This document shows positions 283-23,485 of a stretch of 23,485 bases of DNA, in pieces (position 1 is the first letter of the stretch; every line of letters starts with the position of its first letter). The notes beneath the pieces are model-generated. The model was not told the DNA's origin and did not search any database. It was given only the letters and a program-made list of their open reading frames with translations. Position numbers and translations under genes: made by a program. The stretch is from a bacterium (lineage in GTDB: Bacteria > Hinthialibacterota > Hinthialibacteria > Hinthialibacterales > Hinthialibacteraceae): assembly GCA_963663405.2 (NCBI GenBank), contig CAXXSM010000040.1:1-23485 (forward strand). The letters run 5' to 3'.

Positions 283-1368
283 ATGAAATTTAAACCGGTT
301 GTGATGCCTGGTCGAATACTGTTCGATCAAGAAACATACACAGAACGGTATGGCAAGTTTGTTCTTGAACCCTTGGAACGCGGCTTTGGAACCACACTCG
401 GTAATTCTTTAAGACGTGTTTTACTCTCTTCCATTCAGGGATCGGCAGTGAAAGCCGTACGAATCACAGGTGTTCTCCAAGAGGCTTCTTTCATTCCGGG
501 TGTCGTGGAAGACGTCACGGATATCATACTTAATTTAAAACGGCTGCGAGTCAAGAATTTTCGGAATGGACCTGTTACTCTGTATCTTCAATCTAAAGGG
601 GAAGGTGAAATCACCGCCGCGCAGATTGAAGCGAATCCCGATATTGAGATTTTGAATCCCGATCTACACATCGCCACTCTCGATAAAGATGGGGAGCTGG
701 AGATGGAATTGTACGTGGATGTTGGGCGTGGGTATCTATCCTCCGACCGGCAGGCCAAACAGGCCGACACGTATCCTGTTAATACGATCCTGATGGATGC
801 GATTTTTACTCCGATCGAGCGGGTGAAATATACGGTGGAAAATGCCCGTGTCGGGGACATCACGGATTACGACCGCCTCATCATGGAGGTTTGGACGGAT
901 GGCGCCAATACACCGAAGGACGCAGTCGCCTTTGCGGCGAAGATTATGAAGGACCACTTGATGCTCTTCATTTACTTCCCCGATGAGGATGAAGCGCCTT
1001 TGGAAGGGAAGGATGAGGAAGAAGAAGTCGTCAATCCATATCTGTCAAAAGGTGTGGAAGAGCTGGAACTTTCCGTCCGCTCGTTCAATTGTCTCAAAGC
1101 CGCAAACATTAAATCCGTCGGAGAACTTGTGCAGAAGACGGAAAGCGAAATGCTGAAGTACCGGAATTTCGGAAAAAAGTCCTTAACGGAAATACGCGAA
1201 GTACTGACGAAATATAATCTCCGGCTGGGGATGGATATCTCTCAGCTCAAAAGCGGATCCACTCCTCCAAAACAGACACCTCTAGCGATCTTAGAGGAGG
1301 ATCTGGATGATGAAGAGTTTGAAAAAGCGATGCCTGGCGCGGACGAATTTGGTGAAGATGAAGAATAG
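283..1368 (+). CDS. rpoA: DNA-directed RNA polymerase subunit alpha
   Basis: Motifs EPLERGFGTTLGNSLRRVLLSS, GVVEDVTDIILNLK, DAIFTPIERVKYTVENARVG and the alphaCTD LELSVRSFNCLK...RNFGKKSL. Preceded by a GGAGA RBS. Confidence 0.99.
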   Translation: MKFKPVVMPGRILFDQETYTERYGKFVLEPLERGFGTTLGNSLRRVLLSSIQGSAVKAVRITGVLQEASFIPGVVEDVTDIILNLKRLRVKNFRNGPVTLYLQSKGEGEITAAQIEANPDIEILNPDLHIATLDKDGELEMELYVDVGRGYLSSDRQAKQADTYPVNTILMDAIFTPIERVKYTVENARVGDITDYDRLIMEVWTDGANTPKDAVAFAAKIMKDHLMLFIYFPDEDEAPLEGKDEEEEVVNPYLSKGVEELELSVRSFNCLKAANIKSVGELVQKTESEMLKYRNFGKKSLTEIREVLTKYNLRLGMDISQLKSGSTPPKQTPLAILEEDLDDEEFEKAMPGADEFGEDEE

Positions 1369-1477
1369 ACATTGACGTGGTTATGGATTCCTCTCAAGGA
1401 TGATATGCTTACATCTAATGTATACGCCGTCAGGTTTTAAAAACGTATAGCAAAAACTTTTGGAGAATAGTATAATC

Positions 1478-1852
1478 ATGAATCACCGCAAAGCAGGACG
1501 AAAACTAGGACGCACTTCTTCGCATAAAGAAGCGATGCTCGCGAATCAGGCGACCGCTCTCTTCCGTCATGGAAGAATCAAGACTACGTTAGCGAAAAGT
1601 AAAGAACTGCGGCGATACGCCGAACGGTTGATTACGGCCGCGAAGACCGACACCGTACACGCCCGCCGGCAGGTTGCGAAAAAGATCGGCGATAAATTGA
1701 TCGTGCGGAAGTTGTTTAATGAGATCGCGCCGGAATTCAAAGAGCGCCCGGGGGGGTACACGCAGATCTTTCAATTGGGACCACGCCCCAATGACGGCGC
1801 GCCGATGTCCTACATTCAATTGGTGGGATACGTTCCGCCCGAAGAAGAATAA
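1478..1852 (+). CDS. rplQ: 50S ribosomal protein L17
   Basis: MNHRKAGRKLGRTSSH...IKTTLAKSKELR...ERPGGYT...DGAPM. Start moved to ATG 1478, which has a GGAG RBS at about 1462-1465. Follows rpoA. Confidence 0.98.
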   Translation: MNHRKAGRKLGRTSSHKEAMLANQATALFRHGRIKTTLAKSKELRRYAERLITAAKTDTVHARRQVAKKIGDKLIVRKLFNEIAPEFKERPGGYTQIFQLGPRPNDGAPMSYIQLVGYVPPEEE

Positions 1853-11383: not shown

Positions 11384-11530
11384 AATGAAGAATCTCGCAT
11401 AGAAGCGTAGGACTTCAATACTTCCCACAAAAAGAGGATCGATTGTTGAGAAACGTATTCACTTTCCGGAAGAACAATTTTTATTATTAGAATCTCCATC
11501 GATGTACGTAGAAAATATTTGCCTCATCCC

Positions 11531-11560
11531 TTGAATTTTTTTTTGAGCATATGTTAGATT
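11531..11560 (+). promoter_or_regulatory. Putative sigma70 promoter for the lectin-domain gene
   Basis: TTGAAT (11531-11536), an 18-bp spacer ending in TGn, then TAGATT (11555-11560). An AGGGAGG RBS precedes ATG 11593. Confidence 0.4.
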
Positions 11561-11592
11561 GGATTTAATCCACAACGATAAGGGAGGGCGTC

Positions 11593-13066
11593 ATGATGCG
11601 AAGAATTCGTTTTGTAGCCGGTTTGTGTCTCTTTTTCTGTTTTGTGTCATCGATTTCTGTTTATTCACAGGAATGGATTGTTAATCCTGCTAATGGGCAT
11701 GGGTATATGATCGTTACTGAAAGAGGATGGGAAGAAGCGGAAGAATATGCGCAATCTCTCGGCGCACATTTGGTAACAATTAATAACCAAGAAGAAAACG
11801 ATTGGATCGTGGAGAATATTTTATCCAAATCACCAGGAGGTCGCTTGTGGATAGGTCTATATATGGATGATGGAAAATATAAGTGGTTGAGTGGAGAAAA
11901 TTCAACCTATTTCAATTGGCATGATAGTGAACCAGAAGGTGACAGATATGTGATTATTTCTAATGATATATCTACAAGGGGACGATGGGCTGATACCAGA
12001 GTAAATGGACAATATCTTTCAATTATCGAGATAGATAATCCACCAACATTAACACCAATACCAACAATCTCTCCTACGTTTACCCCTACCCCAACAGCCT
12101 CACCTCCATATTATCAACCTTTCGAAGGGACCGATCTCGCTTCCAATCAATTCGTCTCCGATCCTCCTGCTGGGTTTGTTTCTGGGAATGTCCGGTTTGG
12201 GGCGGTTCCGGAAGGGGAGGGGACGGATGGTGAGGGGATGTCGGTAGATCTGTTTCCGGGGAATGGGAATTTGATTGTTTCGCTGGAACCGGTTGAGGTG
12301 GATGGTTTGGCGCATATCTCCGGGTGGTTTAAATCATCGACATCGAACGTGTCTGTCGCGTTGATTGCGCTGAACAGCCCTATCGATGGGCAGCTGGCTT
12401 ATGTCAATTTGACGGAGGCGGAAGTGCCGCTGAATGATTACAAGCGGTTCGATCTCTATTACGCGCCTCCGTCTGGATTGTTGCAAGTGGCTGTCCAGGT
12501 GGTTAATTCACCTTTCTCGACTTTGTCATCGACCGTGTGGATTGATAACCTTGTCGTAGAGCCGCCTGCGCTTGAAATCGGCGAACCGGTTACGCTGGAA
12601 GTGGATGGGACTTTTGAAGAGGACTTGGATAACTTGATTGTCAATATGAATAACGTGGATGGCAATGTGATCCCCTTTTTTGAATCCCTTACAGATATCG
12701 CTGTTCGAATGAGCATCGAACCGGACAATATGGCCGCTAATATCGGAACTATCGTCACTGGCGTGGAGGATCATTATCCTTTCACACTGGTTGGAGAGGT
12801 GGAGGCTTATCGAGAAACACCATACAATAGTGGTGGGATAATGGCGTTTGTGATGACCAACGCGTATCAAAATGTAGGACTGTTCCGGAAGATCGGCGAA
12901 CTGCCCGGTCTAGAGACCAGTTTCGCACAGTTTGAACGCGTAATAGTGGGGGGAAACTTCACGGTAAAAAATCCCGAAACTCCAATCTATGTCATCATCC
13001 AAAACGGCGGCCCCTGGCGTGGAGTCTACACTCGTGATTGACAATTTGACATTGAGGAGACGTTGA
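11593..13066 (+). CDS. Secreted protein with a C-type-lectin-like domain, a Pro/Thr linker and two tandem beta-sandwich (CBM-like) domains; probable +1 frameshift at 13011-13014
   Basis: Signal peptide, then CTLD motifs NGHGY, WEEAEEYAQSLGAHLVTINNQEENDWI, LWIGL, YFNWHDSEP and GRWAD, then the linker PPTLTPIPTISPTFTPTPTASPP. Removing one C from CCCC gives GGPGVESTLVIDNLTLRRR* (stop 13064-13066), which parallels STVWIDNLVV at the end of the first domain. The uncorrected ORF stops at 13041. Confidence 0.75.
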
Positions 13067-13091
13067 GAGAATTTAAGGAGCGGAATGATTT

Positions 13092-13427
13092 ATGATCGAA
13101 AATCCGGATTTCATCACAGCCATTATCGGATTACTCTTGACCGGTGGATCGGCTTTGGCGCTTCTCATAGTGATTATTATACAGGCGGCAAAGATGAAAA
13201 AAACGTACAAAGTGGATGAGAATTCCTTTCGCGCGGCGCGGGAGACACTGTTCAAAACAGTGTCTGTATTAATCATTGTTCTCAGTGTGTTTCTTCTTAT
13301 TTTTTTAATCACATTTAATTTTGATATACCGGGAGGGACTGGATTTTTTATTGGCTTGGCGATATTTATTAGTGTTGTGGATTATCTAAAATGGACTTTA
13401 GGTTGGAAAGAGGAAGAGGGTAACTAA
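13092..13427 (+). CDS. Small membrane protein (3 predicted TM helices), unknown function
   Basis: AAGGAG RBS and three long hydrophobic segments separated by a basic loop. Confidence 0.75.
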   Translation: MIENPDFITAIIGLLLTGGSALALLIVIIIQAAKMKKTYKVDENSFRAARETLFKTVSVLIIVLSVFLLIFLITFNFDIPGGTGFFIGLAIFISVVDYLKWTLGWKEEEGN

Positions 13428-13469
13428 GGATTAATCGATTTCCCTAAAATCCTCTGTCCGTGGTTTTGT

Positions 13470-13775
13470 TTACGCATAAAATTCAACAATTTTCTGATAA
13501 TCATCAAAATTATTGAATTGGAACCCATCGGCTGTACCGTGCTTCATAATGTACAGTCTGAGTTCCAGCGTATGCCATCCTTCCGTTCCTTGTTTTTTAC
13601 ATTCTTGAACGCCGAGACGCCACCGCCGCATTCCTTCACTGCTGGTTTTAATTTTCAGCAGTTGTTTTTCTTTTCCTTTTAAACTTTTGTACTTGATTCC
13701 GTATCGGCCAAACCATACTTTCGGATCGATGTGACCATCATCTTTGACGATAATAGCTTGTTGTGGATTTGTCAT
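13470..13775 (-). CDS. Hypothetical basic protein (101 aa)
   Basis: ATG 13775 is preceded by AAAAGGAG. Lys-rich, no family recognised. Confidence 0.65.
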   Translation of the reverse strand: MTNPQQAIIVKDDGHIDPKVWFGRYGIKYKSLKGKEKQLLKIKTSSEGMRRWRLGVQECKKQGTEGWHTLELRLYIMKHGTADGFQFNNFDDYQKIVEFYA

Positions 13776-13909
13776 TTCTTTGATACTCCTTTTTAGTGAT
13801 ACATTTCGACTCACATTCGTATCAAGCAGTGACAGAGGCTTCTGTGGAGAGATTGTCTATGCTGGGAACGCGTCTCCAGTTGGGAAATCAGGTAATGGAA
13901 AGGACTGAG

Positions 13910-13949
13910 TGAAAACAAGGATTAAAGAAAACGTCAATCCTTGTTTTCA
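13910..13949. terminator. 14-bp perfect-stem hairpin downstream of the csp gene
   Basis: TGAAAACAAGGATT (13910-13923) pairs with AATCCTTGTTTTCA (13936-13949) around a 12-nt loop. A terminator role is inferred from position only. Confidence 0.5.
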
Positions 13950-13950
13950 T

Positions 13951-13978
13951 TTGCACGTTGTGATCTCAATCATGATGG
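13951..13978 (+). repeat. 28-bp direct repeat, copy 1
   Basis: TTGCACGTTGTGATCTCAATCATGATGG, 27/28 identical to 14462-14489. Confidence 0.92.
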
Positions 13979-13992
13979 TTTTCATGATTGAG
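13965..13992 (-). terminator. Hairpin immediately after the csp stop codon
   Basis: CTCAATCATGA-tggttt-TCATGATTGAG, an 11-bp perfect stem 11 nt after the stop. It has no classical U-tract, and one arm lies in direct-repeat copy 1. Confidence 0.5.
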
Positions 13993-14003
13993 GAACACTC
14001 ACC

Positions 14004-14207
14004 TTATTGAGCGGATCGGACGTTCACAGCTTTGGGCCCTTTTTGTCCTTGTTCGACATCGAAGAGAACGGATTCGTTTTCATTCAAGTTTTTAAATCCC
14101 TCGCCCGCGATGCCCGAATGGTGGACGAATAGTTCCTGTCCGGCGTCGTCTTCGATGAATCCATATCCTTTTTGCTCGCTAAACCACTTTACACGTCCTG
14201 CAGTCAT
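14004..14207 (-). CDS. cspA: Cold-shock protein (CspA family)
   Basis: 67 aa with GRVKWF, RNP1 KGYGFI, RNP2 LFVHHS and [17 protein letters not shown]. The paralog identity is uncertain. Confidence 0.95.
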
Positions 14208-14349
14208 AATCAGGTCTCCAACTTGTTAGAATGTTCACACAGTTTTAGTTTCTGAATGTTCCGGAGCCTTCATTAAAAGCAATGCAGGGTGAACGATAGA
14301 ATAGGGATGGGACCCGGTGATGCAGAAGATAAATTGTATGATATGTATT

Positions 14350-14377
14350 ATTATACTCAATTTTTTTTTATGAGCAA
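14350..14377 (-). promoter_or_regulatory. Putative sigma70 promoter of csp, implying a 5' UTR of about 135 nt
   Basis: On the minus strand: TTGCTC (14377-14372), a 16-bp spacer, then a perfect TATAAT (14355-14350). Long 5' UTRs are typical of csp mRNAs. Confidence 0.55.
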
Positions 14378-14461
14378 GGGAGGTGGAGACGTGGGCATTG
14401 TGGTCATTTCTGATGACGATAATTATATTGAAATGACTTGTTGTAACTATAAAAGAACAAC

Positions 14462-14489
14462 TTGCAGGTTGTGATCTCAATCATGATGG
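14462..14489 (+). repeat. 28-bp direct repeat, copy 2
   Basis: TTGCAGGTTGTGATCTCAATCATGATGG, offset 511 bp from copy 1. Confidence 0.92.
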
Positions 14490-14588
14490 ATAATTTAAAT
14501 AAAATAATTCGATTGTGGATTGCTCCTTCGTAAACTGCCGTATCATTTATTTCGTTCTTGTGTTTTTGGAATGCCGAAGCCGTGTTTT

Positions 14589-15725
14589 TCACCGTGGAAT
14601 AATCAGTTTCTGGCCTCTGTGAATTATATTGGGGGAGGGGAGTTTGTTGACTTCCATGAGTTGTCTGAGGTGGATTCGTTTTCCGTAGACTTTGAGGGCG
14701 ATGTCCGATAGGGTGTCGCCGGGTTGTACGATGTAGGTTCCAGCCAGTGTGACTCCGCTTAGATCGACGAAGTTCACTCCTGTGACGGAGCGGACTGTTT
14801 CTTCGACGAGATAGCGCATTTGTAAGTTCAACACTTCCCCTTTGATCTGGACGATCGAATCCGACTGCGTCACGGTGAGATCGTAAGAACCAAGGGTTTC
14901 GTGCGATTGGAGCGCCTGGGTGATTTGATCTTGGAGAGCCGTGGGATCCGGTTCGGATTTTTCGGTTTCCGGTGTGGGCTCTTCGACGACTGGCTCCGCG
15001 ATTTGGATTTCATACTCTGTGGTTGGTATATACGGCGGCTCTTCCCAATTTGTGTCTGAAATAGAGCCGCTATCGTGCATCGTTGGTTCTTGCTCGATGA
15101 TATCCGGATTTTCGGCCAGGGGATTCGTATCGTTTTGGGCGGGAAGGAAAGTCCGGTCTAGATCGATTGTGTCTATCGTGTAATTGGTCATTATGGGTGT
15201 GGGGAGAATGTGTTCTCTCTCCGCCGCCGCCGTGTCCTGTCCGGTTGTTATCGGTGTGGAAGCGTTTGAAAGTGCATTATTTTGTGTTATTTCTCCCCAG
15301 CGGGATACGGTATAAGCCACAGCGATGGACGCGAAGAGGCAGATCAGCAGAATGGGAGTCAGAAAGCTGATTTGAAACCGGTAGAGAGAGCGGTTTTGCA
15401 TGCGGGAGCATCGTTTAAGGGCCCGGCTGAATTCTTTGTTGAGGGGATCGAGTTCCAACGCGCGTTTCCACAGTGTTTTCGCCTCTTCGATCAATCCTTG
15501 CTGGGCGTAGATCCGGGCGAGGAGGTGGATGGCTTCAATGGAGTAATTGCCATCCTTGATCAACGCGGTGAGTAATTCTTCGGATTGAATCAATTGGCCT
15601 TTCCGGGCGAGCGCGGCGGCTTGGGCGAAGACCAAGGATTGAATAACGGTGGAAGCCGTCTCTTTTTTATGGATTTTGTTTTTGGGATCCGCGCCGGACC
15701 ATAAACGATTGGATAGAAGATCCAT
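14589..15725 (-). CDS. Bitopic membrane protein: N-terminal TPR repeats, TM helix, acidic linker, BON domain, LysM domain
   Basis: TPR AIHLLARIYAQQGLIEEAKTLWKRALELDPLN; TM ISFLTPILLICLFASIAVAYTV; P/T/E-rich linker; BON-like LQDQITQAL...LTVTQSDSIVQIKGEV...VRSVTGVNFV; LysM YIVQPGDTLSDIALKVYG...VNKLPSPNIIHRGQKLIIP. GAGGAG RBS. Confidence 0.88.
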   Translation of the reverse strand: MDLLSNRLWSGADPKNKIHKKETASTVIQSLVFAQAAALARKGQLIQSEELLTALIKDGNYSIEAIHLLARIYAQQGLIEEAKTLWKRALELDPLNKEFSRALKRCSRMQNRSLYRFQISFLTPILLICLFASIAVAYTVSRWGEITQNNALSNASTPITTGQDTAAAEREHILPTPIMTNYTIDTIDLDRTFLPAQNDTNPLAENPDIIEQEPTMHDSGSISDTNWEEPPYIPTTEYEIQIAEPVVEEPTPETEKSEPDPTALQDQITQALQSHETLGSYDLTVTQSDSIVQIKGEVLNLQMRYLVEETVRSVTGVNFVDLSGVTLAGTYIVQPGDTLSDIALKVYGKRIHLRQLMEVNKLPSPNIIHRGQKLIIPR

Positions 15726-15748
15726 TTTGCTTCTCCTCGGATAGCCTA

Positions 15749-18238
15749 TTATTTCAGAAGCGGCATCACGGTGCTGTGCAGGTTTTTGATTTCTTCATGT
15801 TCAGAGATCGGCAGAAGCGCGACAAGCCGCCGGACGGAGGATTCAAGCGCCTGGGCGTCTTGATTTTTCAACGCCCGTTCTCCTTGGCCGAATAAGCGGT
15901 TGGCCAGATCCTGATCTTTCATCATTGTTCTGCGTTCGTTCAAATAGTTATAATATTCTTTCCAAAAATCAGGCATCTGTGTGAACAATTCCATGTTGAT
16001 TTCCTGCAGTTTATTGATTTGCTGTTTTAGCAGGTCTTCATCGAGGGAGCGCAGGGCGTTATGCAATTCCCCTTCGATCTCGTTCAGATGTGGTCGTAGA
16101 ACGGAATTATCACACTGTTCAAACAAGTCACGGGTTTCCGCCATTAGTTGATGCGCTTCTTTGACTAAGGATGGCCATCTCAGACCCTGTTCCACTTCAT
16201 CCAATGAACTTTTTAGATCGAGAAGACGGCGTTGGCACGCGTCCGCCGCGTCACGGTCACTGGTGGCGGCGCCGTAGGAGGTTTTAATGTCGTTCATGGT
16301 TTGTTCGCGGTCGAGTTGTTGGATGATCCGCTCGCTGTGGGGGTGATGAATTTGGCTGAGGCTGGATTTAAGTTTTTCGAGCCGTGATTCCTCTTTCTCC
16401 ACATCTTGACCCAAAACTGTAGTGTCCACGTTTGGTTTTTCCAGATGCAGCACTTCTTCATATTCCTCATCAAGGATGGGAACGTAGGCCATGGTGTGAA
16501 TTTGCCGGGAATCGTCAACTACGATCGTGAGTTCGACTTCGCTGCCGATGGGCACGTCGCGTTTGACATCCGCGCCAGTGACGATTAAGTCACCGATCAG
16601 TTGGTTTCGATCGGCTTGGACGGCGTTTTCTCCTTCCACGACAGGGATGCGGAGGATCGCGCCTTTATTGCCTTTTTTCACTTCTTCCGTCGTGCGGAAA
16701 ATTTCCCGGCGCCGGGCGGGGAGTTCTTTTCCCTTTTCGAGGAAGACTTGCACTTCGTTGTTCGCCAGCGCGACGCCCACCGAGTGAATGAGAGGCTGCG
16801 CGGATATCGTCGCGCCAAGTGTATAGGTAAGACTATTCGGAACGGTTTCCAAACTTTGGCCGGATTGGTTTTTCAATTCGATTTGATATTCGTTCGCCCG
16901 GCCTCTTTCCGCCCGGAGATTCGTCATAAAACCACCGCTGGGAGAGATTTCAATCTGTCCGCTGCGCCATAGGCTTTTCGATTCGATGAATTCGATGGTT
17001 AAGTTACTCAGCGAATCGCCGTTCTGCGCGGATATTTTCCCCGCGACGAGGGGTTCAGGATCGTTGTCGATCGGTTTGTACTCCAGTTCAATCGCATATT
17101 GCCCATGAGAGAGGACTGGAAGCGCTGATTCTTTAAATGGCAGGGAGCCGGCGAAAACCGCTGCGCCGCGCGAGACGACTGTCAATGGATCGACGCTGAA
17201 ATCCAATTCGATCTGAAGCCGATCGTAGAGAGAATCTCTAAGCAGAGGAATCATTGTGGGGCCGCCGACGAGTAGTATTTTAGCAATGTCATCCGGGCCC
17301 AATCCTTCTTCCGTGAGAATTCTATCACAGATGTTGAGAGAACGTTCAATGAATGGTTCGATGAGAGGTTCGATGTCAGCGCGGCGGATGTCCCATTCGA
17401 ATTGCACCCAGTCTCCGTTGTCATCCTGGCAGAGGGGATCGATGAAGATTTGAGTTTCTTCATCGCGTGAGAGTTGGATTTTGGCCTCATCCGCGTGGTG
17501 TTTCAGTTTTGCGAAGGCGGCGCGCCAGGCGGGATTTCCCCGTTCGAAATTAGAGAGGGCGTATTCTTTGCGTAAAGCCGGGGCGAGCAACTGATCGACA
17601 ATCGCCCAGTCCATCAGCTTACCGCCAAGGTGATTGTCCCCCCGATGATTGACGACTTGAATCTCACCATCCTTCATGTGGATGATCGCGGCGTCAAACG
17701 TGCCACCACCCATATCATAAACGAGCCAAAACTCATTTTCGCTTTCACATTGAAATCCATACGCCAATGCGGCGGCGATGGGTTCTTGGAGCAGGGGGCT
17801 TGTTGTCATGCCGGCTAAGCGGGCGGCTTTATTTGTCGCTTCACACTGGGGTAGTTCGAAGGCCGCCGGCACGGTGATGACAGCGGCGTTCACTTCTTCG
17901 CCAATACGCTGACGCACATCGTTCCGGAGAGATTTGAGCACCTCGGCAGAGAGTTCTTCCGGGCGCATTTGCAGTCCACTACGCTGGAAGGTGTATGTGT
18001 GAGTTGTGCCCATTTGGAGTTTGAATTCTCCACAGGCGTTCTCAGGATCTCTTTCGAGTTGGTTTTTCGCTCTTCTTCCCACGTAGAGACGATCTTTTTT
18101 ATCAAGCCAAATCACCGAGGGCGTACATTTCTGCCCTTCGTTGTTTTCGATCATCTCGGTTTCAGTTCCGTTCAACAGCGCGACACTGCTATTGGTCGTC
18201 CCTAAATCGATACCAAAATCAATTGTTCTTCTCATCAT
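15749..18238 (-). CDS. Atypical Hsp70-family chaperone (829 aa), not the housekeeping DnaK
   Basis: NBD motifs GIDLGTTNS, AVITVPAAF, LLQEPIAAALAYG, VYDMGGGTFD, GDNHLGG, EAKIQLS, LLVGGPTMIP and DPLTVVSRGAA. An SBD-like segment starts at about aa 481 (HSVGVAL...EKGKELPARRREIFRTT...VVEGEN). There is an insert at aa 367-480 and a long helical C-terminus. Confidence 0.93.
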   Translation of the reverse strand: MMRRTIDFGIDLGTTNSSVALLNGTETEMIENNEGQKCTPSVIWLDKKDRLYVGRRAKNQLERDPENACGEFKLQMGTTHTYTFQRSGLQMRPEELSAEVLKSLRNDVRQRIGEEVNAAVITVPAAFELPQCEATNKAARLAGMTTSPLLQEPIAAALAYGFQCESENEFWLVYDMGGGTFDAAIIHMKDGEIQVVNHRGDNHLGGKLMDWAIVDQLLAPALRKEYALSNFERGNPAWRAAFAKLKHHADEAKIQLSRDEETQIFIDPLCQDDNGDWVQFEWDIRRADIEPLIEPFIERSLNICDRILTEEGLGPDDIAKILLVGGPTMIPLLRDSLYDRLQIELDFSVDPLTVVSRGAAVFAGSLPFKESALPVLSHGQYAIELEYKPIDNDPEPLVAGKISAQNGDSLSNLTIEFIESKSLWRSGQIEISPSGGFMTNLRAERGRANEYQIELKNQSGQSLETVPNSLTYTLGATISAQPLIHSVGVALANNEVQVFLEKGKELPARRREIFRTTEEVKKGNKGAILRIPVVEGENAVQADRNQLIGDLIVTGADVKRDVPIGSEVELTIVVDDSRQIHTMAYVPILDEEYEEVLHLEKPNVDTTVLGQDVEKEESRLEKLKSSLSQIHHPHSERIIQQLDREQTMNDIKTSYGAATSDRDAADACQRRLLDLKSSLDEVEQGLRWPSLVKEAHQLMAETRDLFEQCDNSVLRPHLNEIEGELHNALRSLDEDLLKQQINKLQEINMELFTQMPDFWKEYYNYLNERRTMMKDQDLANRLFGQGERALKNQDAQALESSVRRLVALLPISEHEEIKNLHSTVMPLLK

Positions 18239-18268
18239 TATTATCTCCCTGTCGAATGATTGGGAAAT

Positions 18269-18814
18269 TTATAGGCTTTCTCTAGTTTGAATGCTGGTCT
18301 TCCACGAAACTGGATTCCCGTTTCGGTTCTTTATCTCACTGGCGTTATGAAGAGGGGCCGATATTGGCTGACCGACAATCACTTCGCCCATTTGGATCAT
18401 TTTATCTTTGTAGTAGATTGTTGGCTTGACGGTTTCAATGACTTGATCGCAGGTTACTTGGTCTGAATGTTCGAATGAGATGATCCGCAGGGCTTCGCCA
18501 CCCGTGATTGTTTCACCGGTGTGGTTATGGATTTCAACACCGGATTGAGTCAGTGAATCCCATGTGGATTCAAGAAAGCGTTTCGCGCCGCGAATTTCCT
18601 TGGGTGGCACATCCAATTTTTCGAGACGGCCACGGATGCGCCACAGTCCGTTGCACACTTCTTTAAGAATCGGAAAGAATTCATTGCCATTCCCGCGTCT
18701 TGGTTGGAGAAGATTGGTGATTGTCTCTGTATTCTCCAGCAGTTTTGCGGGCCAAGCGGGAATCTCAATTCGAAATTCTTTTGGATATCTGTACTGCAAT
18801 AAACTTTCAAACAT
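18269..18814 (-). CDS. GrpE-like nucleotide-exchange-factor homologue
   Basis: A helical region followed by LTQSGVEIHNHTGE...DQVIETVKPTIYYKDKMIQMGEVIVG, which resembles the GrpE beta domain (L..GVE.I...GE.FDP...V.EV.Q.GY...DRVLRPA.V.V). Lies directly upstream of the Hsp70 gene. Confidence 0.7.
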   Translation of the reverse strand: MFESLLQYRYPKEFRIEIPAWPAKLLENTETITNLLQPRRGNGNEFFPILKEVCNGLWRIRGRLEKLDVPPKEIRGAKRFLESTWDSLTQSGVEIHNHTGETITGGEALRIISFEHSDQVTCDQVIETVKPTIYYKDKMIQMGEVIVGQPISAPLHNASEIKNRNGNPVSWKTSIQTRESL

Positions 18815-18835
18815 ATCATCGTCCTCGCTCTCAAT

Positions 18836-20413
18836 TTATCCGATACTCTCCGGTTGACCGTCCTGATTCCATTGTTCTTTGAAATGTTTTCTCGCTGCAG
18901 GAAATTCTTCTTTCGCGGATTCGGGTTTGATCCAATCGGGAAAGCGTTTTCGACCGATCGCGCGGCCGATTACCGAGCCAAGGGCGATTCCGAGCGCGGC
19001 GCAGAAGAAGAGAGTGATCCAAAACGCGGAACCGGTCAGTGAACCCAACGCGAACCAAGCCAACGCGATCGCCGATCCTCCACCGATACAATTCCCAACT
19101 GCCGTCCACTGGCGTATACGTTGATGCGCGTTTTGACACCGTGCGCAACGCGGGATTTCAATTGTGACCGGTTCCCCGTTTTCTTTTGAGCGTATTGTCC
19201 ATCTTAAATTGGTGGCGCCCCGCGCGAGATAATCGTCGCAGAACCAGCATGGGACGCATTCCATGCGATCTTTGAGAAGGCGGATGTTGTCCAGAATTCT
19301 CTGACGAACCGATTCCGTTTCGGCGATCGCGTAGGCTTGCTGGAGTAATTCGATCGTTTTTTTGGATTCTTTTATATCTTGTGAAGCGGCGATCAAACAT
19401 TCCAATATGGTTTGCGCCACATCATTGTTTACGGTTTCCCGGTATGGCGTTCCTTTTTTTGTGACGACGTTGATGACGGATAAGGGGAGATGGGTTTGCG
19501 CCAGGAACATTTGAAGGCGTGTTTCGACGTCTTCCGTTTTGTCTTCCAACTTGCTTTTTATGGCTTGACATTGAATCTTGAGTTGTTCGCGTATGGGAGC
19601 GCATCCCCGCTGAATGGCTTCATGGATATGCGCGCTGTCCATTCCGGCGTTATGGATTAATTGAAAATGGGAATCTGTTTCCGCTGGATCACCGCTTTCC
19701 AACGCCTGGATGCATCGTTTGACGTTGATTAGAAGCAGAATAACGGGTAGAGCGCTACGAATCCGGCGTACGAATCCTGTTGTAAGGCGTGGATCGTTGA
19801 TCTCCCGGACACGATCCCTCATGGCGCTCCATACCGCTTCCGGTTCTAAGCAGATTTTCCATTTCGAATAGGCGTAGTTCCAATAAAACGTTTTTTCTTT
19901 TTTTTGTTCTTCGGTTAAGTCTTCCAGTTGAATTTCCCGTTCCATCTCAATCGCAAGCGCGTGGGATAGGACGGCAAGGTTATGGCAGGTTATCGGATCG
20001 GTAATATGTTTCCCGTTTTCCAAGATTTGACGGTATGCGCCCGCTTTCATATTTGAAATGAAAATTTCGTTGATGTTGGATTGGGAAGACCATGTGGGCC
20101 AGAACCAGAAGAATTCATCGATTAGACGTAATTTTGGATCTCTCAATCGTTGGAGCGCATTTCGTATTGTTTCTTGGTCTGGAAGTGGAGTGAGAGGGAA
20201 AATGATGTCTTCTTGTGTATCATTTCTATTATCTGTATCCGCTAGGAAGTATAATTTTTGACTTTCCCGGTTAATTTGTCTGGAACAAGCATTGACCGGT
20301 ACGCCAAGAATCCGGAACGCATTTTTATTATATAGATTGAGATCCGCTTCGCTGAAGAGGATCCCGCATTGTTCAAGAGAATTTTGTTGAAAAGAATTGT
20401 TCGGATAAACCAT
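18836..20413 (-). CDS. Membrane protein with an N-terminal J-domain-like segment (no HPD), a helical/TPR-like middle, a CxxC...CxxC motif and two C-terminal TM helices
   Basis: NAFRILGVPVNACSRQINRESQKL resembles J helices I-II and IRNALQRLRDPKLR resembles helices III-IV. CWFC...CARC follows, then two Gly-rich hydrophobic helices. First gene of the operon, 21 bp before the next start. Confidence 0.65.
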   Translation of the reverse strand: MVYPNNSFQQNSLEQCGILFSEADLNLYNKNAFRILGVPVNACSRQINRESQKLYFLADTDNRNDTQEDIIFPLTPLPDQETIRNALQRLRDPKLRLIDEFFWFWPTWSSQSNINEIFISNMKAGAYRQILENGKHITDPITCHNLAVLSHALAIEMEREIQLEDLTEEQKKEKTFYWNYAYSKWKICLEPEAVWSAMRDRVREINDPRLTTGFVRRIRSALPVILLLINVKRCIQALESGDPAETDSHFQLIHNAGMDSAHIHEAIQRGCAPIREQLKIQCQAIKSKLEDKTEDVETRLQMFLAQTHLPLSVINVVTKKGTPYRETVNNDVAQTILECLIAASQDIKESKKTIELLQQAYAIAETESVRQRILDNIRLLKDRMECVPCWFCDDYLARGATNLRWTIRSKENGEPVTIEIPRCARCQNAHQRIRQWTAVGNCIGGGSAIALAWFALGSLTGSAFWITLFFCAALGIALGSVIGRAIGRKRFPDWIKPESAKEEFPAARKHFKEQWNQDGQPESIG

Positions 20414-20464
20414 TTGAATTCCGTTATTTATACATCATTTTTTACTCATTTTGTATATCATGAA

Positions 20465-20485
20465 GAATATCAATATCAGATATTC
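20465..20485. promoter_or_regulatory. Inverted repeat upstream of the Hsp70 operon, candidate operator
   Basis: GAATATC-N7-GATATTC, 52-72 bp upstream of ATG 20413, with TCATGA on both sides. The AT-rich context lowers its significance. Confidence 0.3.
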
Positions 20486-20918
20486 ATGAGAGCCATTTGT
20501 AGAAGAGAAATTAATTTACTTATTGTAAATATCTTTACCTATTCTAGCGCGGATTTTGGAGACCGCAAACAACTTTTCAGAAAAACTTTACCAAATCCAG
20601 TAAAGTTATGGTTCGATTTGGTTTGATAATTCGATTGAATTGAAGTAAAGGGAGAAGGAAATATTTGTATCTCTTACTATTTGGAAGTAAAAGATTTAAG
20701 GTCTTTTATTTGAGATTTTTTCTAATGAAGGATAACTATTAGTGAATTATGATGGATATAGAAAAGTTATAGAATGAGTGTTTGGTAAGATGAAGTTGTA
20801 AGGAGTAATTTGTTAAATTATTTAACGGTTGAAATCGGGATTCTGATCGTTTTTGTGATTATTATTTTACAGAAAATGATTGAGGGATGATTGTATTACT
20901 TCTTTTTGTAACGATTGA

Positions 20919-22031
20919 TTAGTAGAGAGCCCAATCGATCACAGATGTTGTTTCTTTGGTGACGGCGGCGCGGAAATTGTCTATGTAGAGGGGAACACCT
21001 GCATCGGCTGCATCATTATTTGTCGCGAACCAGAGTTGGAACCATCCACCTTCTTCTTCGAATGCGGGGGCGTGTTTGGCCATGTCTACCTTCCAGACGA
21101 TGGTTTTCCAATCGTCAACCGCATCATTGATGCCTAATAAACTATATTGATCCCAGCCGCCGCTGCCGGATTGGATGATAAGGGCGATCTGCGCCCAGCT
21201 TGTTGTTCCGCCGAGCTGCACGTCAAGGATAATCTCTTGTATGTCGGTCCATCGGTCGAAGGCTCCCATTGCGTCATCCGTTTGAAGGTAATTCGCCCAT
21301 CCGGGGCCAAGTTCCGTCACCATATAGTTTTCGCCTTCGGAAGGAGTGATTTCGCCTTCTCCAGGAATCGGCATCTGTACGTTCGCGTCGGTGGTTGTCC
21401 AGCCCGTTGAGAATGTCGTGTCGGGATCTTCCTCGTTAAAGCCATAAACCAAGACCATTTCCGTTTCAATGACGTCAGCGGGCCGATAGAAATAGATATC
21501 GTCGATATAGAGTTGTCCCCTTACAGTTCCGTCGCGGGGGCGATGAAACCTCCGAAATAGGAAATATCACTCAATCCGTGCTTGAGGTAAGTGAATCGAT
21601 CGGCCAGACCAACTCCACCCATTCACCGGTTATCTCAGTTCCTTGAACGCCCAGGTTTACGCTCCCGGTTTCAACGCGGATTTCGAACTGGTTGTTGTCG
21701 GGAAACGGGACGGAATCGGGGAGATAATAGACCCACATGTGAAGTTCCGTCATACCCGCCGCATCGATCGGGGTAACATCGGGGAGAAATTGAGTTGAGA
21801 CCATTGCCAAGAGGTACCCGCGTTATCGTATTCAACGTACAACGCGCTATCGCCATCTTTTGGAGTGACATCGATTAACGGCGATGTCTCCACGAGGGAT
21901 ACCTGAATCGAACCACCGGTGTATTGCCAGTTGTAATCGTCCTCGAAACTGGTCACATCGATGCGTTTTTCTTGTGAATGAGCGGCTCCAATAAGGATAA
22001 AGCATACTGCAAGAATCGTTATTCGTTTCAT
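20919..22031 (-). CDS. Secreted protein with two tandem CBM-like beta-sandwich domains; one gene broken by three 1-nt deletions
   Basis: AAGGAG RBS and signal peptide MKRITILAVCFILIGAAHS. Adding one base at about 21785, 21573 and 21535 fuses the ORFs into about 371 aa: ...WSQLNF(S/L)PDVTPIDAAGMTELHMWVY...SSTDLSDISYFGGFIAP(G)DGTVRGQLYIDDIYFYRPADVIETEMVLVYGF... Both halves end in LYID(D/N). Confidence 0.75.
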
Positions 22032-22196
22032 TTTTTACTCCTTGGCAAGAAGTTATTTTGTGAATCTTCGACCGGCTATCGGTCTTCGTTCCACACAGTA
22101 ATTTAATATTTTATCTAAAAATCCTTTTTGGTTCTATGACTCCAAGAGTGTGATTTTTGTAGGAACTATTATAAATGAAAGTACAACGCGCGAATG

Positions 22197-22248
22197 AAAA
22201 TGAGTTGTGGGAGATATCGCGAACGAGTAAGTCTCAGAAACTCATTTT
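22197..22248. repeat. Intergenic imperfect inverted repeat
   Basis: AAAATGAGTT (22197-22206) pairs with AACTCATTTT (22239-22248), with an inner GAGAT/GTCTC pairing. Confidence 0.45.
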
Positions 22249-22327
22249 TATATAAATTAACAATAATTTAACTTTTTCTATCCATTGATCCGCAGTAAAC
22301 TCATTTACTTATTTTCTGATTTTTGCG

Positions 22328-22356
22328 TTGACATCTCTATCGAAATAGTTTATGGT
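22328..22356 (+). promoter_or_regulatory. Putative sigma70 promoter
   Basis: Perfect TTGACA (22328-22333), 17-bp spacer, TATGGT (22351-22356). Confidence 0.55.
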
Positions 22357-22650
22357 CGTTTTGGGCGCTTGGGTTAACAACTAATTAAATTCATTGTTTT
22401 GGCTTGTCTTAAATAGTTGTTTTTTTTCGTAATAATCCGGTTTTTAGATATTAATGTCAAACGAAATTGTCTTTTTTAATAATTGGTATGGAAGAGAACA
22501 TCGAGTACCGGTGTGAGATAGAAAAGAGATTACTATCCTTTCTTTAAAGAGCGCTTATTACCGGAGCGGTTAATCACGGTTATGGCGTATAGCGTTAGGA
22601 ATAATGAAGCATTGTTTTTTTAGAATTTTAATTTTACAATGGTTGTAGTA

Positions 22651-23485
22651 ATGGGAATTTTTTCGTTCTTTAGTAAATCTAATACAAACAATAATCATCT
22701 TCTTTCATGGACGGCAGGGAATCGATTTATAACTATATTAAAGGAAATATTGATATAGAAACTGGACGTTTAAAAGACGGCGCAGGAAATCTGCCAGATG
22801 ATGAAAAGATCTTTAAGCCTGGTGAACTTCGATGGGTTGCGGGAGGTATGGATGGTGGTTTCGGTCACCACGGATCTGGTGGAAACGATTTAAAAAAAGG
22901 AAAGAAAATCGCAAACCTTCTACGATCGATTTCCAAAAAAGGTTCTACTAAGTCGAAAATCGAACTTTACAATATTCTCGTAGAGGATTCATTAATTGAT
23001 TGTATCGATACAGCTCTTGAGATGGCTATTAAGTCAGGATTATCAATAGAGCCATTTCTTCATGATTTCGCACAGTTTCTTACGACCAAATCTCCCGATC
23101 GAGGTCCAGTAAAATTTGGGATCGCGTTACTTGGTCTTATTCGCGATCCACAAGATTTAGATGTAATCAAGACTCTTGGTAAACATGAAGAATTTACTCT
23201 ATATTCGGCCGTTGCGATCACAAGCTCTTTAGAAAATCCGGACATTGAACTATTCAAGTTAGCCCAGTCTGTGGATGGATGGGGAAGATCCAATTGGTCG
23301 AAAGACTCGCACAAACAAGCGATCCATCAATCAAGGCATGGTTGATCCGGGAAGGCTACAAAAATGATATTATGTATGAATATCTAGCCTATACATGCGC
23401 AACTGCAGGTGATCTTCATCAAGCGCTTGACGCAGAAACGATCGATCAAGAACTCTTTGATGGAGCGGGTGATATCATTGAAGCG
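22651..23485 (+). CDS. Hypothetical alpha-helical (HEAT/ARM-like) protein, 3'-partial, with frameshifts near 23288 and possibly 22709
   Basis: Adding one A near 23288 extends ORF 22707-23345 as VDGWGRIQLVERLAQTSDPSIKAWLIREGYKNDIMYEYLAYTCATAGDLHQAL..., open to the window end. An upstream ATG at 22651 (MGIFSFFSK...LSW) joins DGRESIY if one G is added, which is less certain. PVKFGIALLGLIRDPQDLDVIKTLG is HEAT-like. Confidence 0.65.

Follow-up and report, generated by a model that had tools for sequence, protein, structure and literature searches.

The 23,485-nucleotide (nt) stretch analysed here (the window) is the whole contig C40 of a Hinthialibacteraceae genome (8.4 Mb, 170 contigs, 82% complete), and it carries a real, intact and conserved operon of four genes built around an atypical Hsp70. 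In transcription order, the genes encode a J-like protein of 525 amino acids (aa; P0001), a protein with a predicted GrpE fold (181 aa, P0002), the Hsp70 itself (829 aa, P0003) and a protein that combines tetratricopeptide repeats (TPR), a transmembrane (TM) segment, a BON-like and a LysM domain (378 aa, P0004). The arrangement is far beyond chance, because in 48 of 80 metagenome loci, all retrieved with the 181-aa protein alone, the J-like and Hsp70 genes are present too, and the three genes stand in the same order. Our favoured reading, to which we give about an even chance of being right, is that the four genes provide a dedicated Hsp70 cycle that senses stress or carries out repair on the cytoplasmic side of the inner membrane.

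The metagenome scan was seeded with the GrpE-like alignment as the most specific part of the system, and 80 loci of 380 relatives were analysed; these are not independent, as near-identical copies occur among them (e.g., L140/L142/L144 and L114/L116). Open reading frame (ORF) calling and family hidden Markov models revealed a common order of a ~365-aa gene, the J-like gene, the GrpE-like gene, the Hsp70 gene and a gene of 143–334 aa, and most loci outside the 48 are contigs of 1–4 kb. The upstream ~365-aa gene encodes a Hanks-type Ser/Thr kinase (Pkinase E-values of 1e-41 to 1e-46 in five out of five tested) and is the immediate upstream neighbor in 31 of the 37 loci where 1300 nt or more are available for it. 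Among the exceptions, L122 harbors a kinase 2 kb away, and L091, L109, L112, L134 and L159 have none. The window is a minority, kinase-less version of a usually five-gene cassette. The initial annotation, made from the sequence of the window, had described a self-contained four-gene operon: its core is indeed conserved in order, with the Hsp70 co-occurring with the other three genes across metagenome and family relatives, yet the relatives usually comprise five genes including the kinase.

The cassette family is large and patchy across phyla. Searched against 1.84 billion entries, the GrpE-like profile matched 2132 cluster representatives at E-values up to 0.001, 1171 up to 1e-10 and 451 up to 1e-30. 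The Hsp70 has thousands of relatives of ~830 aa and ~50% identity, with named sources in Dehalococcoidales, Gammaproteobacteria, Calditrichota, Armatimonadota, Acetobacteraceae, Longimicrobiales and Vicinamibacteria; the ESM Atlas offers unnamed or “Hsp70 family” clusters only. Another contig scan, seeded with the Hsp70 alignment and including Actinomadura, Pseudonocardia and Reyranella among its sources, yielded full-length relatives in 6 of 80 loci (L009–L014), the rest matching in the nucleotide-binding domain (NBD) only and being mostly canonical dnaK. This poor specificity arose because generic NBD motifs were picked; the dnaK operons so found provided the 54 canonical DnaK controls used below.

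The collection represents the phylum by 35 species genomes; among them, 5 of the 19 family members other than the window genome carry the GrpE-like gene, compared with none of the 15 genomes from the rest of the phylum. The four-gene order without kinase is complete in two of these carriers (G005, G003) and, but for a J-like gene cut by the contig end, in a third (G006), whereas G019 and G016 provide short contigs with core genes only. Three of the carriers' Hsp70 genes are complete and intact (829, 832 and 843 aa), the other two being cut by contig ends, and the TPR-TM proteins end in LysM in two cases (L175, L176) and are recognized by Pfam as TPR only in the third. As the kinase-less four-gene form recurs in at least six genomes of the family, the window genome included, the core appears useful without a dedicated kinase. 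The maintenance of gene order in the metagenome loci and in the family genomes further argues that the co-chaperones are private to this Hsp70. The window genome holds a single copy of the cassette in addition to separate canonical chaperones, as had been anticipated: a grpE-dnaK pair is located on contig C76 and three full dnaJ genes on C80, C27 and C132.

At the level of operon layout, the four co-oriented genes lie on the minus strand at exactly the annotated coordinates and are separated by 21, 30 and 23 nt. Purine-rich motifs resembling ribosome-binding sites (GAGG, GGGAG and GAGGAG) are found 8–9 nt 5′ of the starts of P0002–P0004, the three downstream genes for which they had been noted, and only a weak motif of this kind precedes the first gene. 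The closest homologues of the four ORFs align over 91–100% of the query, at or near full length, and therefore no frameshift is visible, in line with the initial annotation. The ~500-bp AT-rich upstream region likewise holds up, at 505 bp and 27.9% GC compared with 49.5% for the cassette; a scan with a sigma-70-type consensus, which may not apply to the host, retrieved 6 sites vs 9.1 expected from shuffles and no promoter-like site in this presumed promoter region, and thus lends no support to a promoter there. The conserved unit at the window locus is exactly the four genes, because the flanking ORFs match nothing elsewhere: BLAST searches with the window's seven flanking ORFs, run against every ORF of the relatives, returned self matches only.

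The 829-aa protein is strongly supported, on the evidence of its sequence, as an ATPase-competent Hsp70 with a substrate-binding domain. The Pfam HSP70 model (PF00012) matches with an E-value of 6.5e-84, a match confined to the NBD, and residues D11, K73, E152, D175, T180 and D182 as well as the motifs DLGTTNS and DxGGGTFD are invariant in 21 of 21 family Hsp70s. Pfam does not cover the Hsp70 part beyond residue 366. There, alignment of residues 367–829 to the 54 canonical DnaK sequences by hhalign (probability 94.8%, E-value 4.9e-8, query columns 119–385) starts from around residue 485 and recovers the substrate-binding beta domain and an extended helical lid. The 118 unaligned residues in between form a family-specific insert that occupies the place of the canonical short interdomain linker and holds invariant residues. 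Canonical DnaK identity can be rejected for P0003: it scores 287.4 bits against a DnaK equivalog cut-off (TIGR02350) of 822.55 bits, its linker is replaced by the insert and a contact residue for J-domains is exchanged. In DnaK, the Arg of the (K/L)RIINEP stretch is the partner of the Asp in the DnaJ HPD motif. This Arg is present in 54 of 54 canonical DnaK sequences, whereas 20 of 21 family Hsp70s carry Pro (Pro148 in P0003), and the Asn that follows is likewise changed to Gln in 20 of 21.

The change in the Hsp70 is mirrored in its presumed partner. P0001 has no Pfam or NCBIfam match. Residues 15–110 nevertheless align to 36 canonical DnaJ sequences by hhalign over 61 columns spanning helices I–III (probability 88.6%, E-value 2.7e-6), with the HPD position falling into a gap. 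The HPD is missing from all 45 J-like family members and all 51 locus ORFs, whereas 35 of 36 canonical DnaJ proteins have it. The HPD–Arg contact has therefore been lost in a coupled manner on both sides, and we term P0001 J-like rather than a J-domain protein because the HPD is absent. An AlphaFold2 (AF2) model of P0001 (pLDDT 90.7) displays an all-helical solenoid up to residue 385; used in full length as a Foldseek query, it returns generic helical-repeat matches only (best E-value 9e-3). Besides P0001, 44 homologues share a conserved N-terminal core of ~400 aa, including a DPR loop in which D207 never varies across the 45 sequences, while P208 and R209 are retained in 87% and 93%, respectively. 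The C-termini differ, ending in a zinc ribbon plus hydrophobic anchor as in P0001, or in RDD, DUF4190 or LysM. In P0001, the two CxxC pairs of the putative zinc ribbon, which are kept in members of ~525 aa, flank two beta hairpins in the AF2 model, and the anchor shows as a Kyte-Doolittle segment at 456–487 and as AF2 helices at 424–455 and 462–490, followed by a basic cytoplasmic tail. We therefore regard the 525-aa protein as a strongly supported membrane-anchored J-like adaptor. Two clusters of the family carry an N-terminal CheY receiver, and longer forms in metagenome loci contain HEAT repeats (five loci), Sel1 repeats, an N-terminal FHA domain (L149:1729–3870) or an N-terminal DnaJ_C domain (L166:6311–8539). 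The latter two fusions hint at phosphorylation readout and client binding, respectively.

Modelling supports the view that the J-like protein may bind the Hsp70. The complex of Hsp70 residues 1–600 and J-like residues 1–390 was predicted with our own alignments and reached an ipSAE of 0.69, compared with 0.00 for the best of three controls. The mark that it passes was attained by 116 of the 157 solved complexes and by 2 of the 215 mismatched pairs, counts that are only rough when own alignments are used, and the pass may stem from likeness to a solved DnaK/J-domain complex. The runs share at least 91% of contacts, with partner pLDDT of at least 81. On the J-like side, predicted contacts comprise residues 43–60 and 81–91 (helices II and III) and 206–209; on the Hsp70 side, they comprise residues 168–194, 311–317, 479–509 and two parts of the insert (386–400 and 434–438). 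The insert is predicted to contact helix II, and the DPR loop to touch Hsp70 residues 170 and 311–317. Both the alignment to DnaJ and the predicted complex bear out the J-like character assigned to the 525-aa protein in the initial annotation, and the lack of the HPD fits that wording.

The 181-aa protein escapes family models altogether, with no Pfam or NCBIfam match at an E-value of 0.1 and none in PADLOC. Searching its family profile against PDB sequences did not retrieve GrpE either (best match a GTP pyrophosphokinase, E-value 0.006). The structural comparison is clearer. An AF2 model built with 47 homologues (pLDDT 84.5) was used for Foldseek against the PDB, where ranks 1–12 are all GrpE chains (E-values 7.9e-6 to 4e-2) and the next match drops to 0.48. 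On this ranking we accept the predicted GrpE fold, a helical stalk followed by a C-terminal beta domain, as had been suggested for this protein. P0002 would be a candidate nucleotide-exchange factor resetting the Hsp70 nucleotide.

The fourth protein probably links the set to the envelope. In P0004, Pfam LysM (48.6 bits, cut-off 20.9) and TPR_2 (27.8 bits, cut-off 27) both pass, which confirms the proposed LysM, whereas BON stays just under its cut-off (25.0 vs 27 bits) and reaches 64.3 bits in the relative from L148. A hydropathy scan detects a single TM segment at residues 114–143; together with the anchor of the 525-aa protein, this substantiates the two membrane-anchored members of the initial description. 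Since a basic stretch precedes the TM segment, the TPR side is probably cytoplasmic and the BON-LysM end periplasmic, where it should bind peptidoglycan. P0004 clusters with the gene 3′ of Hsp70 in 34 metagenome loci. By a script rule, the downstream gene belongs to the P0004 family in 28 of 31 loci, and two of the three non-matching loci (L114, L116) carry a 152-aa family member overlapping the Hsp70 stop. The shared part is the TPR, followed by a TM helix in nearly all members. OmpA, LysM or BON-LysM form the periplasmic end in 13 of 28 loci. Among metagenome and family relatives, BON plus LysM occurs in L148, LysM in L091, L175 and L176, and OmpA in L123 and L109. The fourth gene, for which the initial annotation had allowed either a fixed or a variable nature, is thus fixed in its TPR-TM part and variable in its periplasmic end. 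Short TPR-TM genes (143 aa) are followed in 10 loci by a conserved secreted-type protein of 297 aa. It carries an InlB B-repeat and a 3-keto-disaccharide hydrolase domain, also known as DUF1080 (L125, L140 at 11508–12401, L141, L144, L152, L156, L160, L162 and L167).

Table 1 Features of the four-gene operon and its upstream region in the window
Feature	Position	Strand	Size or basis
J-like adaptor gene P0001	18836..20413	-	525 aa, ORF list
J-like domain without HPD, residues ~28-105	20099..20332	-	hhalign
DPR loop D207-P208-R209	19787..19795	-	alignment of 45 sequences
Putative zinc ribbon CVPC (386) ... CARC (423)	19130..19258	-	two CxxC pairs
Hydrophobic membrane anchor, residues 437-490, one or two TM helices	18944..19105	-	hydropathy, AF2
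Predicted GrpE-fold gene P0002	18269..18814	-	181 aa, ORF list
Atypical Hsp70 gene P0003	15749..18238	-	829 aa, ORF list
Hsp70 NBD, residues 8-366	17141..18217	-	Pfam, 21-sequence alignment
Family-specific insert, residues 367-484 (118 residues)	16787..17140	-	unaligned to DnaK by hhalign
Substrate-binding beta domain (~485-590) and extended helical lid (591-829)	15752..16786	-	hhalign
TPR-TM-BON-LysM gene P0004	14589..15725	-	378 aa, ORF list
Probably cytoplasmic TPR module, residues ~30-105	15411..15638	-	35-member alignment, Pfam TPR
Probably periplasmic BON (262-320) and LysM (331-377)	14595..14942	-	Pfam
AT-rich upstream region, presumed promoter region	20414..20918	.	505 bp, GC 27.9%

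The survey of the relatives' surroundings took in 102 of 170 flanking ORFs that are 140 aa or longer, drawn from 26 loci. Signalling genes are present in the form of PP2C (L093, L114), FHA-winged helix-turn-helix (wHTH; two in L114) and FHA-kinase (L093) proteins. Proteostasis is represented by two HSP20 genes in L091, the closest relative on a long contig, and by ClpB-like AAA+ genes located downstream in L123 and, as judged from BLAST clusters, also in L138 and L150. In addition, L114 holds a Clp_N-AAA gene, and L147 encodes an AAA-AAA-M41 protein. Further neighbors are of conflict type (vWA, Schlafen, FGE-sulfatase). In three relatives, the gene immediately preceding the cassette kinase encodes a large CHAT-protease protein (L151:1289–5125, L122:1193–3211 and L146:306–3098), the one in L151 being a single 1279-aa protein in which CHAT is fused to Clp_N and two AAA+ domains.

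We compared the set with characterised chaperone systems, none of which it matches. Like DnaK-DnaJ-GrpE, it would combine an Hsp70 with intact ATPase and substrate-binding beta domain with a GrpE fold and J helices I–III; unlike it, the co-chaperones are invisible to Pfam and NCBIfam, the HPD is missing, Pro replaces an invariant Arg, a 118-residue insert takes the place of the linker, the lid is longer and two partners are membrane-anchored. The E. coli HscC/DjlB/DjlC system resembles it in placing a specialized Hsp70 beside J-proteins of ~480 aa, with the TPR-like Sel1-repeat genes ybeQ and ybeT at the locus. DjlB and DjlC carry C-terminal membrane anchors and have the HPD, and to our knowledge the HscC locus lacks a GrpE. 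Kinship was rejected, as the J-like family aligns to DjlB and DjlC by hhalign with probabilities of 0.4% and 0.2%, respectively, without detectable relation, and similarity between the window Hsp70 and HscC is confined to the NBD (31% identity). The E. coli hscC locus is an unrelated but similarly built neighborhood; in E. coli K-12 (676000–690000, L179), ybeQ, ybeT and two DUF1266 genes are interleaved with djlB and djlC.

Two eukaryotic systems offer looser parallels. The mitochondrial import motor pairs a membrane-held Hsp70 with an HPD-less J-like subunit and a GrpE-type factor, as seen in Pam16, Pam18 and Mge1. In outline, the window set may be compared with this motor (mtHsp70, Tim44, Pam18, Pam16, Mge1), a likeness of part list and shared folds; no channel gene is linked to the cassette. 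BiP with IRE1/PERK may be likened to the cassette insofar as an Hsp70, a J-type recruiter and an exchange factor are co-encoded with a signalling kinase in 31 of 37 relatives; it differs in that the window has no kinase and the relatives' bacterial kinase is a short Hanks-type protein.

Extra Hsp70s have been described in bacterial conflict systems. Kaur et al. 2020 (PMC7159879) describe patchy multi-gene GAP1-N2 and DO-GTPase systems with an extra HSP70 along with GrpE and DnaJ- or TPR-fused partners; these are built around TRAFAC GTPases, with or without tubulin. A GTPase-centred HSP70-GrpE system was rejected for the window, as no GTPase domain occurs in its ORFs or in the 102 flanking ORFs of the 26 relatives' loci. 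A 2025 preprint reports DnaK-like domains fused to protease-effector defence modules of a different architecture from the window (PMC12642450), and a 2026 review calls bacterial DnaK derivatives largely unexplored (PMC13580251). Searches of the literature outside subscription journals found no description of this cassette, and the family is unnamed in every library tried. With PADLOC, HscC/DjlB/DjlC and the GTPase-centred systems all failing, the statement that this four-gene combination matches no characterised system stands.

Three further accessory Hsp70 operons are encoded by the same genome. C165:3500–12000 (L180) harbors, in one direction, a DnaJ-TPR protein (425 aa), GrpE, a full Hsp70 (592 aa) and a 530-aa TPR protein; C129:29500–36500 (L181) a 107-aa DnaJ, a 301-aa GrpE and a 606-aa Hsp70; and C89:88500–93112 (L182) GrpE, a 124-aa ORF and a fragment-like Hsp70 of 388 aa. 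They follow the same J - GrpE - Hsp70 (- TPR) logic as the window but differ from it in that their DnaJ and GrpE proteins are recognized by Pfam and their Hsp70s are of ordinary length (388–606 aa). The window set is the most divergent accessory operon of the genome, and the family profiles match none of the others.

According to our favoured reading, a membrane-bound chaperone cycle for stress sensing or repair, the J-like protein would recruit the Hsp70 via helices II and III onto NBD lobe IIA and the family-specific insert. This would occur without the HPD–Arg contact that both partners have lost, and the conserved DPR loop may take part. The J-like protein would thereby tether and position the Hsp70 at the membrane, the GrpE-fold protein would recycle it, and the TPR-TM-BON-LysM protein would fix the assembly to one place on the cell wall. 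Such a machine might bind or remodel clients at the cytoplasmic membrane face and report or repair membrane-proximal protein damage or envelope stress. In most relatives, the chaperone state would be coupled to the Hanks kinase of the cassette, joined in some loci by FHA, PP2C and wHTH partners, whereas in the window lineage the core would work without a dedicated kinase. The links to kinase, FHA, CheY, PP2C and wHTH argue for a phosphorylation readout of the machine state in most lineages, and those to HSP20, ClpB-like and DnaJ_C proteins argue for misfolded protein as the input.

Several observations weigh against this reading. The likeness of P0002 to GrpE is weak at the sequence level: hhalign of its family to 38 canonical GrpE proteins is collinear over 91 columns at a probability of 8.5% (E-value 0.0039). 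HPD-less J-like domains usually fail to stimulate Hsp70, and with such a partner the chaperone cycle may run differently. The predicted interface is no more conserved than the rest of the proteins (0.67 vs 0.73 for the Hsp70, 0.48 vs 0.42 for the J-like protein), and 1302 of 10,000 random residue sets reach the J-like interface value. In 15 of the 28 relatives, the TPR-TM protein has no periplasmic domain, and the wall link is therefore not essential to the family. The window genome, at 82% completeness, lacks an orthologous cassette kinase (best score 85 bits vs ~540–680 for full-length cassette kinases), so that the signalling part cannot be read from the window locus. Finally, CHAT (L122, L146, L151) or caspase (L114, L156) genes adjoin the cassette in 5 of 26 loci, and neighbors match the PADLOC models ZacC (1e-172, L138), GajB-like (L118), AriA/OLD-like (L155, L140) and caspase, in a hand-picked set without background control that indicates association in some loci and not enrichment.

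These neighbors fit an unlikely alternative, in which the cassette is a conflict or defence module whose tethered Hsp70 senses invader proteins or infection damage and triggers the kinase, caspase-like proteases or growth arrest, the window being a sensor core whose output was lost or never acquired. Besides the CHAT and caspase genes, the patchy distribution within the family and its absence from the rest of the sampled phylum speak for it, as do an Hsp70 identity near 50% across many phyla, window flanks that are AT-rich and conserved in no other locus, matches of the cassette kinase to the PADLOC kinase models mad6 and PD-T4-6 and the DnaK-like domains in protease-effector modules reported in the 2025 preprint (PMC12642450). 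The kinase matches, however, may reflect the shared kinase fold only, and the PADLOC neighbors were chosen by us. None of the four proteins matches PADLOC-DB 2.0 at an E-value of 0.001 (best JukA, 0.014), the conserved core contains no toxin or nuclease domain, and none of 49 pattern matches among the viral contigs searched is a relative. The Hsp70 is also conserved to a degree that is unusual among defence genes. A pulling or assembly motor, with a tethered Hsp70 that extracts, translocates or assembles an envelope component and a peptidoglycan-bound subunit as its fixed anchor, appears quite improbable. Its part list would parallel the mitochondrial motor, and wall-binding OmpA and LysM ends and the conserved secreted-type 297-aa protein in 10 loci fit it, but a conserved translocon, secretin or other channel gene is missing next to the cassette and no client is evident. 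Moreover, 15 of 28 relatives have no periplasmic domain, and the frequent kinase has no counterpart in such motors.

Alternatively, the long Hsp70 might pair with canonical DnaK as an Hsp110-like co-chaperone, boosting exchange or disaggregation rather than acting on clients, a role proposed for bacterial DnaK derivatives in the 2026 review, which ascribes linker divergence and loss of J-domain stimulation to Hsp110 (PMC13580251). The insert in place of the linker, the lost J-contact Arg, the long lid and the ClpB-like genes near some loci are consistent with it. We nevertheless consider it very unlikely in view of the protein's own GrpE-fold factor, a co-inherited J-like partner predicted to bind it, two membrane-anchored partners and a recognisable substrate-binding beta domain. 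The absence of a kinase at the window, set against its presence in 31 of 37 relatives with room, could also mark a decaying remnant of the five-gene cassette after kinase loss. This we regard as highly improbable: none of the four ORFs is interrupted or shortened, the family keeps its catalytic residues invariant, metagenome relatives share 54–67% identity, and the kinase-less arrangement recurs in five other family genomes with three complete, intact Hsp70s.

The start of the window is ordinary chromosomal context, with rpoA and rplQ (ribosomal protein L17) at 283–1852 (+), followed by a 676-aa Reg_prop propeller protein, two GFO/IDH/MocA oxidoreductases, a nitroreductase, a methyltransferase, a DAHP synthase and a xylose-isomerase-like TIM barrel. 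On either side of the cassette (13001–14588 and 20414–23485), the DNA is AT-rich, with a GC content of ~0.40 vs 0.49 in the first 11.5 kb, and contains small ORFs only, without family matches; ORFs of 179 and 93 aa upstream run in the same orientation as the operon. The window's flanking ORFs yielded zero matches in PADLOC, and six of the seven have no Pfam match. The exception (11593–13041, +) encodes a 482-aa protein with a C-type lectin domain (Lectin_C, E-value 4.4e-10) and a hydrophobic N-terminal stretch in its translation. Its gene has the ordinary metabolic genes on one side and, on the other, the AT-rich stretch that precedes the cassette, and it is without relatives in the other loci.

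A more far-reaching version of the favoured reading, which we consider speculative and rather unlikely in full, is that the window encodes the chaperone core of a bacterial counterpart to BiP-IRE1/PERK or the import motor. Here a peptidoglycan-anchored Hsp70 and an HPD-less recruiter using a different contact, possibly the DPR loop, would let client load gate a Hanks kinase and, in some lineages, caspase-like proteases, thus turning envelope damage or infection into a cellular decision. Independently of the mechanism, the cassette family is large and spans many phyla, with private co-chaperones that pipelines annotate as “hypothetical”, and the kinase-less form at the window shows that the chaperone core is retained on its own. 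If the mechanism holds true, it would represent a second way of coupling a J-type partner to Hsp70, and it would provide a testable path by which envelope or proteotoxic stress could lead to bacterial Ser/Thr phosphorylation.

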